DNA of 7,980 nucleotides from Octopus sinensis (Eukaryota). Both the position numbers and the translations under genes were made by a program. The stretch lies in assembly GCF_006345805.1 (NCBI RefSeq), contig NW_021828640.1, positions 1 to 7,980 of the forward strand, given 5' to 3'. The notes beneath the pieces were generated by a model, which worked only from the letters and a program-made list of their open reading frames with translations, did no database searches and was not told where the DNA came from. Below, one piece after another: positions 4,146 through 5,526 of the stretch (positions within the stretch are counted from its first letter, which is position 1; every line of letters starts with the position of its first letter).

Positions 4146-4225
4146 GTGTTTGTTGTTGTTGTTTAGCCCCAGGTCAGTCCTGATCCAGTTGTACAATGAT
4201 CAATGACAGTCCCCATATCACCTTA
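4146..4225 (-). mobile_element. Possible degraded 3' end of a retroposon with a (CAA)n tail
   Basis: (GTT)n at 4147-4163 abuts TTTAGCCCCAGGTCAGTCCTGATC, which resembles a recalled octopus repeat end. There is no second copy in the window to confirm it. Confidence 0.3.
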
Positions 4226-4568
4226 ATTTATTCCTACATACTCTCTCTTCCATATTTCTACTGTTTCCAATGTATTTTTCCATTTATAATAGAAGATTTG
4301 GCTGTTATTTCTAGTATTGTGTTGTTATTTCTAGTGGCCTTTTTAATTTCCCAAGAAAGAGAAATTTTCAATAACTAAGGATCTGGTTTAAGGAATTCTA
4401 TGGTTGTTAGTTTTGAAACCTGACACTGCTTTTTGTTTTTATTTTGATGGATTGGATTGTCTTGTTAAAAGCTGATCAATTAAAAGCTCATCAATCAATA
4501 ATTATCCAACATGATCAATACCTCATTCATGATTCTTGACTGCTTTCATGTTTACATTCATGGTTTTT

Positions 4569-4745
4569 GCACGTAAAAATCACCATCTGAACATTGTCGA
4601 TGCCGGTTCCGCCTGACTGGCTCCCATACCAGTGGCGCGTAAAAAGTACCATTCGAACATGGCTGATGCCAGTAACCCCTGACTGGCTTTCGTGCCAGTG
4701 GCATGTAAAAGGCACCATCCGAATGTGGCCTATATCAGTACTCCC
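4569..4745 (+). mobile_element. SINE-like family C, 5' part (66-bp internal tandem repeats), interrupted by an insertion
   Basis: GCRYGTAAAA..ACCAT recurs at 4569, 4635 and 4701 (period 66). The period continues exactly at 5290 once the 523-bp insertion plus duplication is subtracted. Confidence 0.8.
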
Positions 4746-4818
4746 AAGTGGTTAAGGCATTGGGTTTGAAATTCAATGGGAGTTTCCCACACAGGAACGT
4801 ATCCTGTTCACAGTGCAA
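4744..4818 (+). pseudogene. 5'-truncated tRNA-Ser retrocopy (anticodon reads TGA; possibly decayed from CGA)
   Basis: D-loop AGTGGTTAAGGC; anticodon stem TTGGG/TTCAA with loop TTTGAAA (anticodon 4767-69); long variable arm GGGA-gtt-TCCC; T-stem ACAGG/CCTGT; 3' acceptor strand TCACAGT; discriminator G, then CAA. Colinear with eukaryotic tRNA-Ser. The 5' acceptor strand is missing and the T-loop is mutated. Confidence 0.85.
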
Positions 4819-5049
4819 GGCGGTGAGCTGGTAGAAACATTAGCACACTGGGTGAAATGCTTAGTGGTATTTTGTCTGCCGCTACGTTCTGAGTTCAAAT
4901 TCCACCGAGGTCGACTTTGCCTTTCATCCTTTCGGGGTCGAGAAATTAAGTACCAGTTATGCACTGGGGTCAATATAATCGACTTAATCCGTTTGTCTGT
5001 CCTTGTTTCTCCCCTTTATGTTTAGCCCCTTGTGGGCAATAAACAAATA
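4819..5049 (+). mobile_element. SINE family B, monomer 1 (tRNA-related head; Nin/Deu-like central motif)
   Basis: GGCGGTGAGCTGGTAGAA head, GAGTTCAAATTCC B-box-like motif, GGTCGACTTTGCCTTTCATCCTTTCGGGGTCGA..AAATTAAGTACC central motif and an A-rich end. A second copy follows directly. Confidence 0.85.
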
Positions 5050-5254
5050 AGAAACGTTAACACGCCGGGCAAAATGCTTAGTGGTATTTCGTCGGCTGCT
5101 ACGTTTTGGTTCAAATTCCGCTGAGGTCAACTTCGCCTTTCATCCTTTCAGGGTCGATTAAATAAGTACCAGTTATGCACTGGAGTCACTATAAACAACT
5201 TTGTCTGTCCTTGTTTGACCCCTCTGTGTGTAGCCCCTTGTGGGCAGTAAAGGA
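5050..5254 (+). mobile_element. SINE family B, monomer 2 (lacks about 14 nt of the 5' end)
   Basis: Colinear with 4833-5049 from AGAAAC onward; ends TGTGGGCAGTAAAGGA at the target-site duplication. Confidence 0.85.
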
Positions 5255-5526
5255 ATATCAGTACTCCCTGACTGGCCCCTGTGCCAGTGGCATGTAAAAA
5301 GTACCATCCGAATATGATTGCTGCCAGTCCCACCTGCAGGTTGCATGTAAAAAGCACCTACTACACTCTCAGAGTGGTTGGCATTAGAAAGGGTATCCAG
5401 CTGTAGAAACATTGCCAGATCAGATTGGAGCCTGGTGCAGCCTCCTGGCTTCCCAGACTCCAGTCAAACCGTCCAACTCATGCTAGCATGGAAAGCGGAC
5501 GTTAAAAACGATGATGATGATGATGA
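5255..5526 (+). mobile_element. SINE-like family C, 3' part with (GAT)n tail
   Basis: Resumes the 66-bp repeat (5290, partial at 5343), continues GGTTGGCATTAGAAAGGGTATCCAGCTGTAGAAAC and ends GGACGTTAAAAAC(GAT)5. Confidence 0.8.

Follow-up and report, generated by a model that had tools for sequence, protein, structure and literature searches.

The interval 4732-5268 of the window, the whole 7,980-nucleotide stretch of the Octopus sinensis contig NW_021828640.1 analysed here, is a single-copy fusion of a tRNA-Ser(TGA) piece with a dimer of the short interspersed element SINE B, inside one 14-bp target-site duplication (TSD). This fusion belongs to a recurrent class, in which tRNA 3' ends are joined in sense to an intact SINE head. 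The initial annotation of the stretch had missed this membership, as well as the fact that the class consists mostly of pre-tRNA fusions. Taken alone, the window locus is a dead and ordinary example, and its value lies in the class that it exposed.

The tRNA-Ser/SINE B fusion in the window

All the features described here lie on the + strand; family letters B and C are those of the initial annotation, and A and E are labels added in the follow-up analysis. The insertion sits in a host repeat of family C, made of 66-bp units, which occupies 4569-4745 on the 5' side (TRF period 66 at 4569-4730; family D18) and is back in register at 5269-5526, with (GAT)n at its end. The 14-mer ATATCAGTACTCCC is found exactly at 4732-4745 and at 5255-5268, cannot be extended and has no third copy in the window, with a chance expectation of about 4e-6 (composition-based, 30 x 30 placements). 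The last two nucleotides (CC) of the left copy are at the same time nucleotides 11-12 of the tRNA, and the first three of the right copy are shared with the SINE tail. When the insert was excised in silico the 66-bp period remained intact, the next host unit resuming in register at 4744, and both copies of the 14-mer have bases that set this host unit apart from the others, as expected for the duplication of this very site. The exact duplication and the restored period, both pointed out in the initial annotation, are thereby confirmed.

The join is not an assembly artefact, because a contig from run X3, belonging to a study (P2) other than the possible source study (P1), spans 4701-4845 with no differences; in run X6 no junction-spanning contig was present among those listed. 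Among the joints listed from the run data, which are dominated by repeat copies, none crosses the insertion. On the flank, an X3 contig of depth 2 differs from the window at 19 of 249 positions (4164-4412), compared with 0 of 145 in the junction contig, with a paralogue, a divergent haplotype or errors as possible sources of the mismatch.

The tRNA piece, at 4744-4815, aligns without gaps to nucleotides 11-82 of the tRNA-Ser(TGA) gene at G000:C15:5532943-5533024 (locus L002), with 10 mismatches in 72 positions, four of them at CpG. This gene is the closest of 22 Ser gene variants, a set drawn from the 40 candidates scored out of 174. The proposal of a 5'-truncated tRNA-Ser copy, which had been staked on the alignment of 4744-4818 to a host tRNA-Ser, is borne out over 4744-4815. 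Neither ARAGORN nor Rfam called a tRNA on this copy, in such a way that its identity comes from the genome's own genes, and its folding is no better than that of shuffled sequences (z -0.74). The copy lacks nucleotides 1-10, so its A box is partly lost; comparison with the gene also revealed three changes in the B box, at 4794-4804 in the T-loop, and the absence of the parent gene's trailer. With the A box cut and the B box altered, the window copy is, as judged from its sequence, promoter-dead.

The tRNA piece is followed by a C at 4816, probably C74, with which the post-transcriptional CCA begins, as none of the 22 Ser gene variants carries a C after nucleotide 82. This evidence of one base speaks for a processed tRNA whose last base was C74, or for a CCA with a base lost or changed, and a Ser gene with a C-initial trailer among the unscored candidates (40 of 174 having been scored) is a possible alternative source. 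The next two bases, AA at 4817-4818, are the usual leader of SINE B, preceding the head in 24 of 30 ordinary copies and in 34 of 40 fused copies, with a C before the AA in 0 of those 24. Since AA is the leader of the family, the most fitting reading of CAA in the window is a single C in front of that leader, and the "G-CAA" end described in the initial annotation need not be a mutated CCA. From that description the unusual C is retained, being unlike any of the 22 Ser gene variants, and the fusion need not be spacer-free.

The first SINE B monomer is full length (4819-5050, by the head pattern) and the second begins at monomer nucleotide 15 (approximately 5050, to 5257, by alignment), in agreement with the start at 4819 and the second monomer proposed earlier. 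The head pattern of SINE B has 20,393 exact matches in the genome, and a loose 13-mer head pattern has 118,675. The tail-to-head join of the window dimer has 1,453 matches and is a common dimer form, which makes a double template jump unnecessary as its explanation. One of the named octopus SINE families is OK. For comparison with named families, OR1 and OR2 are named in PMC4824008 and PMC4758252, the consulted parts of which give no sequence for them. The duplications around SINE B copies often begin with GGTA or TATA/GATA at about head+231 (L035-L063 and fused loci), and this site is also found inside SINE B itself, suggesting a target preference and self-nesting.

The tRNA and the SINE parts were probably integrated in one event, as the initial annotation had it. 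One TSD surrounds both parts, no tRNA 3' sequence is repeated after the SINE tail, the sister loci described below share the layout, and the non-CpG divergence is equal in the two parts (6/62 in the tRNA part against 28/364 in the SINE part, p=0.61), consistent with one age. The changes in the T-loop, including A58 to T, were considered as marks of copying through modified bases and discarded, since the tRNA part shows no excess of such changes over the SINE part (transversions 3/62 against 10/364, p=0.42).

A genome search with 4740-4822 returned three matches, the window locus itself and two tRNA-Ser(TGA) genes, and only the window locus carries the join, which supports a one-off chimera. 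The undescribed composite family that had been contemplated is not supported: the search detected no multiple copies of the same join in unrelated flanks, as an amplified SINE family with a tRNA-Ser head would leave, and the one other Ser-B fusion (L324) has 14 nucleotides of tRNA plus trailer inside a 16-nt duplication, with a join that differs from that of the window. Neither is this copy supported as a new SINE head, being a single copy whose added head has no working A and B boxes (nucleotides 1-10 are absent and the T-loop has three changes). Nor is the piece an antisense tRNA half of the twin-priming type, as it lies in sense and covers nucleotides 11-82.

Recurrence of tRNA-SINE fusions in the genome

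A strict pattern of T-loop, CCA and SINE head with 0-3 spacer bases had no match in the genome, because the one exact B case has four extra A. With a looser pattern this case was found at L095, where the 3' part of a tRNA-Asp, CCA, four A and a B-type head follow one another and a 9-nt duplication surrounds both parts. A tRNA-Asp pattern had 132 matches; 20 of these loci were fetched, and 8 of the 20 turned out to be fused to a SINE head, so that many of this genome's dispersed "tRNA genes" are such retrocopies, which matters for tRNA gene counts. A large tandem array of tRNA-Asp genes, with a spacing of about 158 bp, was also seen at G000:C5:18.29-18.40 Mb.

A pattern of a T-loop plus a B head in sense had 82 matches, whereas an antisense control with a slightly looser pattern had 38. 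All 82 loci were examined and 40 were tRNA-positive, that is, they aligned to a library of ARAGORN calls from the fetched loci, other fused copies being part of this library, or matched Rfam RF00005, which was applied to 40 of the 82 loci, with 10 confirmed. L107, L198 and L209 were removed from the positives by hand, and duplicates among the rest (L211/L212 and probably L219/L220) leave about 38 events. L209 and L198 were rejected as tRNA fusions because their T-loops are those of another SINE. The pair L098/L107, with TCA in register, was rejected as a CCA-type fusion, as it represents a degenerate tRNA-like family with one relative in a similar flank. This degenerate family (L098 at 1452-1522, and L110-L113) has TGT at the anticodon position and an atypical loop; three copies have similar flanks, and L098 scores 24.5 bits in Rfam, under the cut-off. 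At L198, L184, L201, L204 and L228 the duplication spans some 70-90 nt upstream with a T-loop and no clear tRNA match, these upstream parts being possibly heads of other SINEs or unrecognised tRNAs captured likewise.

The position of the duplications differs between the two sets of loci. Among the 40 positives, a TSD of at least 9 nt is present in 17, always around the tRNA and never beside the head, and was not found in 23, whereas among the 42 other loci it lies beside the head in 9, encloses the upstream part in 6, falls between in 2 and was not found in 25 (enclosing versus beside the head, Fisher p=1.8e-4). Swapped flanks gave 0-2 of 40. Two of the 17 enclosing duplications are not independent or clean, as L212 duplicates L211 and L215 reflects a local duplication of 40 nt, which brings the clean ones to 15.

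The tRNA is 5'-truncated in 23 of the 37 B positives scored with the library, and the last base of the partner is T in 33, G in 5 and C in 2 of the 40. A run of T4 is present at the join in 22 of the 40 and absent in 18; both promoter boxes together with no T4 run were found in 7. With a family A pattern there were 114 matches, of which 30 were fetched; of these 30, 22 were tRNA-positive (L245/L246 being one event) and 13 were truncated. The 30 loci yielded no enclosing duplication that was convincing, so the single-event status is less direct for family A. Altogether, 62 loci were classified as fusions (40 B and 22 A) in what is a partial survey, and a GTTCAA variant pattern had 98 matches as a raw, unclassified pattern count. 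For SINE B, at least 40 fusions in 118,675 head matches correspond to a minimum of about 0.03%, as the pattern demanded an intact T-loop and would miss the window copy itself.

Exact CCA joins are rare, being seen at L095/L161 (1 of 40 B), L240 (1 of 22 A) and L312. The joins are diverse: only L211/L212 are identical, with the same flanks, and L202/L215 differ at 2 positions and in their truncations. Nine of the 10 matches to one tRNA-Glu trailer are fused to repeats. These repeats come from several families, and truncation and join vary from match to match, the picture that independent events would leave; no parent gene of this trailer was found among the 10 matches. Three fusion trailers are shared with unfused genes that have other upstream flanks: L256/L133 over 11 nt, L144/L138 over 10 nt and L197/L136 over 8 nt. 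Most members of the class are pre-tRNAs ending in a U-rich trailer, many of them 5'-truncated and each with a different join, and the window copy is of a rarer, trailer-less type.

U6 also takes part in fusions. Of 26 dispersed copies, from 46 of 48 hits fetched, 20 have a repeat joined to them when the flanks are read by eye, and none is joined to SINE B. Copies of U6 and of pre-tRNAs were found joined 0-8 nt before one internal motif of the tail of family A and its relatives, with U6 at L267, L269, L272, L296, L297, L299, L300 and L307-L310, and at the further loci L314, L315, L320 and L144. This suggests that the tail motif is a preferred RNA 5' end, either of a short tail-only family or of a cleavage site, and if that end carries a 5'-OH the joins there could be ligation products. 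Within the window, family A forms a fold-back layout at 6770-6964, where a copy and an inverted partial copy have arms (6770-6850 and 6884-6964) that are 85% complementary, and its tail is in tandem at 1-278, a 119-bp duplication at the contig start with 2.3 copies of 95% identity. A large tandem array of U6 genes lies at G000:C1:141.92-141.95 Mb.

Origin of the fusions

The window fusion was probably produced by one event of target-primed reverse transcription, in which the reverse transcriptase (RT) jumped end-to-end from the SINE RNA to the 3' end of a processed tRNA. The RT would prime at a nick in the family C repeat, where the 3-nt overlap with the tail lies, and copy a pre-existing SINE B dimer RNA up to its 5' AA leader. 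It would then jump onto a tRNA-Ser, most likely ending at C74, and copy 72 nt of it, the insertion being resolved at the 2-nt CC overlap between tRNA and target. This reading is based on the layout, namely on the enclosing duplications, the sense orientation, the junction of the partner's 3' end with the intact 5' leader of the SINE and the joins that differ by locus, and on the recurrence of such fusions genome-wide, with tRNAs of many isotypes and repeats of several families taking part and the partner usually having a T-rich pre-tRNA trailer at its end. The initial annotation had placed the jump on an intact CCA end; C 4816 fits a processed 3' end, and the rest of the CCA cannot be attributed to the tRNA, which leaves this part of the proposal weak. 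The R2 enzyme jumps between RNA ends, favours non-templated purines and captures pyrimidine-ended RNAs, according to the consulted part of PMC11581009, and this purine preference fits the T-ended majority, the scarce CCA joins and the C-ended partner in the window. The T bias is no proof of base-paired jumping, as any pre-tRNA offers a T-rich end.

In an alternative to which we give a minor share of probability, the tRNA and the SINE RNA would be ligated by an RtcB-like or another ligase, and the hybrid RNA retrotransposed as one template. Such ligation is described as demonstrated for U6/L1 in human cells in the part of PMC6789731 consulted. It predicts the same single enclosing TSD, and in fact a jump and a ligation before reverse transcription give indistinguishable DNA. 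The repeat-fused U6 copies in this genome (20 of 26 dispersed copies, flanks read by eye), and the involvement of several repeat families that may use different enzymes, would also agree with it. However, Pol III RNAs are expected to have 3'-OH and 5'-triphosphate ends, so at these joins the intact SINE 5' leader (AA in 34 of 40) would bring a triphosphate and the partner a 3'-OH. Both kinds of ends sharply reduce RtcB ligation, as reported in PMC6789731, although another ligase or end processing is a possible route.

Less probable still, and conceivable for the window locus alone, is a history in two events, in which the SINE dimer was inserted first, with its TSD and AA, and a tRNA cDNA was later captured at the 5' junction by DNA repair through the 4-bp repeat CAAG that flanks the tRNA piece (4745-4748 and 4816-4819). 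The order TSD-AA-head is indeed the ordinary layout of SINE B. Nevertheless, CpG decay at G13 of the tRNA accounts for the left CAAG, 3 of the other 4 CpGs having decayed as well, and C74 plus the leader for the right one; a later capture would also have to strike this exact junction, the two parts are equally old, and the enclosing layout recurs at 15 clean sister loci. We consider it very improbable that the fusions go back to a SINE insertion at the terminator of a tRNA gene, where Pol III reading through from that gene would have given a composite master, later amplified into a family. Most sister fusions do carry a genomic trailer, and the lack of a T4 run at the join in 18 of 40 would allow read-through in principle, but a TSD beside the head was found in 0 of the 40 tRNA-positive B loci, the joins differ from locus to locus with only L211/L212 identical, the window copy is devoid of its parent gene's trailer, and CCA fusions cannot arise in this way.

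The current view is that SINEs acquire their heads through a template switch to a tRNA; as a rule, the founding event has to be deduced from families that are already complete. This genome preserves the intermediates before any amplification, so that they can be tallied according to isotype, kind of end, truncation and state of the promoter, and such counts allow testing the jump against ligation, and also why so few fusions found families. The fusions are likely a fossil record of how SINEs can gain new front ends. Going further than the single-jump reading of the window locus, and with about even chances in our opinion, the enzymes that copy several SINE families may routinely pass the 5' end of the SINE and continue on nuclear pre-tRNAs or on other Pol III RNAs with a U end, and the hundreds of independent fusions so produced would be a fossil series of SINE head gain. 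The copied terminator or the cut A box would then explain the near-absence of families, and the few fusions that keep both boxes and have no T4 run (7 of 40) would be proto-families.

Comparison with known chimeras

In the consulted parts of the literature, with subscription papers mostly outside this scope and supplementary tables that could hold cases, no report of recurrent sense fusions of pre-tRNAs with full-length SINEs was found, and the consulted main text of a recent octopus repeat annotation (PMC13282606) has no occurrence of "chimer". The parts consulted of the works cited below do describe related systems. Among them are the Group IV chimeras of small RNAs with non-LTR elements, that is U6/L1, U6/L2, U6/RTE and rare U6atac/Alu (Doucet et al. 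2015, PMC4476161), in which a small Pol III RNA lies in sense 5' of the retroposon inside one TSD, oligo-U-ended partners are favoured and the events are independent and one-off. The window locus has two layout features of this group, one TSD round both parts and a host small RNA in the same sense on the 5' side. However, the partner in Group IV is U6 or U6atac and the retroposon a 5'-truncated LINE, whereas here tRNAs or pre-tRNAs of many isotypes are joined to a full-length SINE at its intact 5' end. In that work the snRNA-Alu cases are described as rare and the switching as perhaps restricted to U6 and U6atac (PMC4476161).

Human tRNA/LINE-1 chimeras also have the tRNA and the retroposon in one TSD, of 9-19 bp in 8 of 8 checked; they comprise 21 loci, mostly with antisense tRNA halves ascribed to twin priming (10.1101/2025.02.02.635956), in contrast to the 62 loci of our partial survey, with sense orientation, joins at the 3' end of the tRNA or pre-tRNA and SINE partners. 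Tailless and pre-tRNA retropseudogenes (Schmitz et al. 2004, via PMC2912911 and PMC4476161) are likewise TSD-flanked tRNA copies made by the LINE machinery, although they are 3'-truncated and stand alone, whereas the copies here are 5'-truncated or whole and fused to SINEs. Recurrent fusions of a small RNA with a SINE or LINE in a non-mammalian genome are known in Magnaporthe (WEIRD/Mg-SINE/MGL), including one tripartite case within a 14-bp repeat, but with one partner RNA instead of many tRNAs (PMC2104539).

A switch from SINE RNA to tRNA was proposed for the head swap of PittSINE (Suh et al. 2017, PMC5729268) and for the origin of SINEs in general, including SINEU and SINEs with bipartite LINE parts (PMC4494074, PMC5786205, PMC4758252). 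The founding event proposed for these families, a switch from SINE RNA to a tRNA inside a TSD, would have the layout seen here (PMC5729268, PMC4494074, PMC5786205). Those families, as well as the bipartite-LINE SINEs, are amplified and their founding event is deduced, whereas here the unamplified intermediates are seen directly; moreover, the head was replaced in PittSINE (PMC5729268), whereas here a tRNA was added before the old head, in a window copy that appears promoter-dead. The kind of event is already known from U6/L1 and tRNA/L1 chimeras, and the sense fusion of pre-tRNAs to full-length SINEs is a new variant of it.
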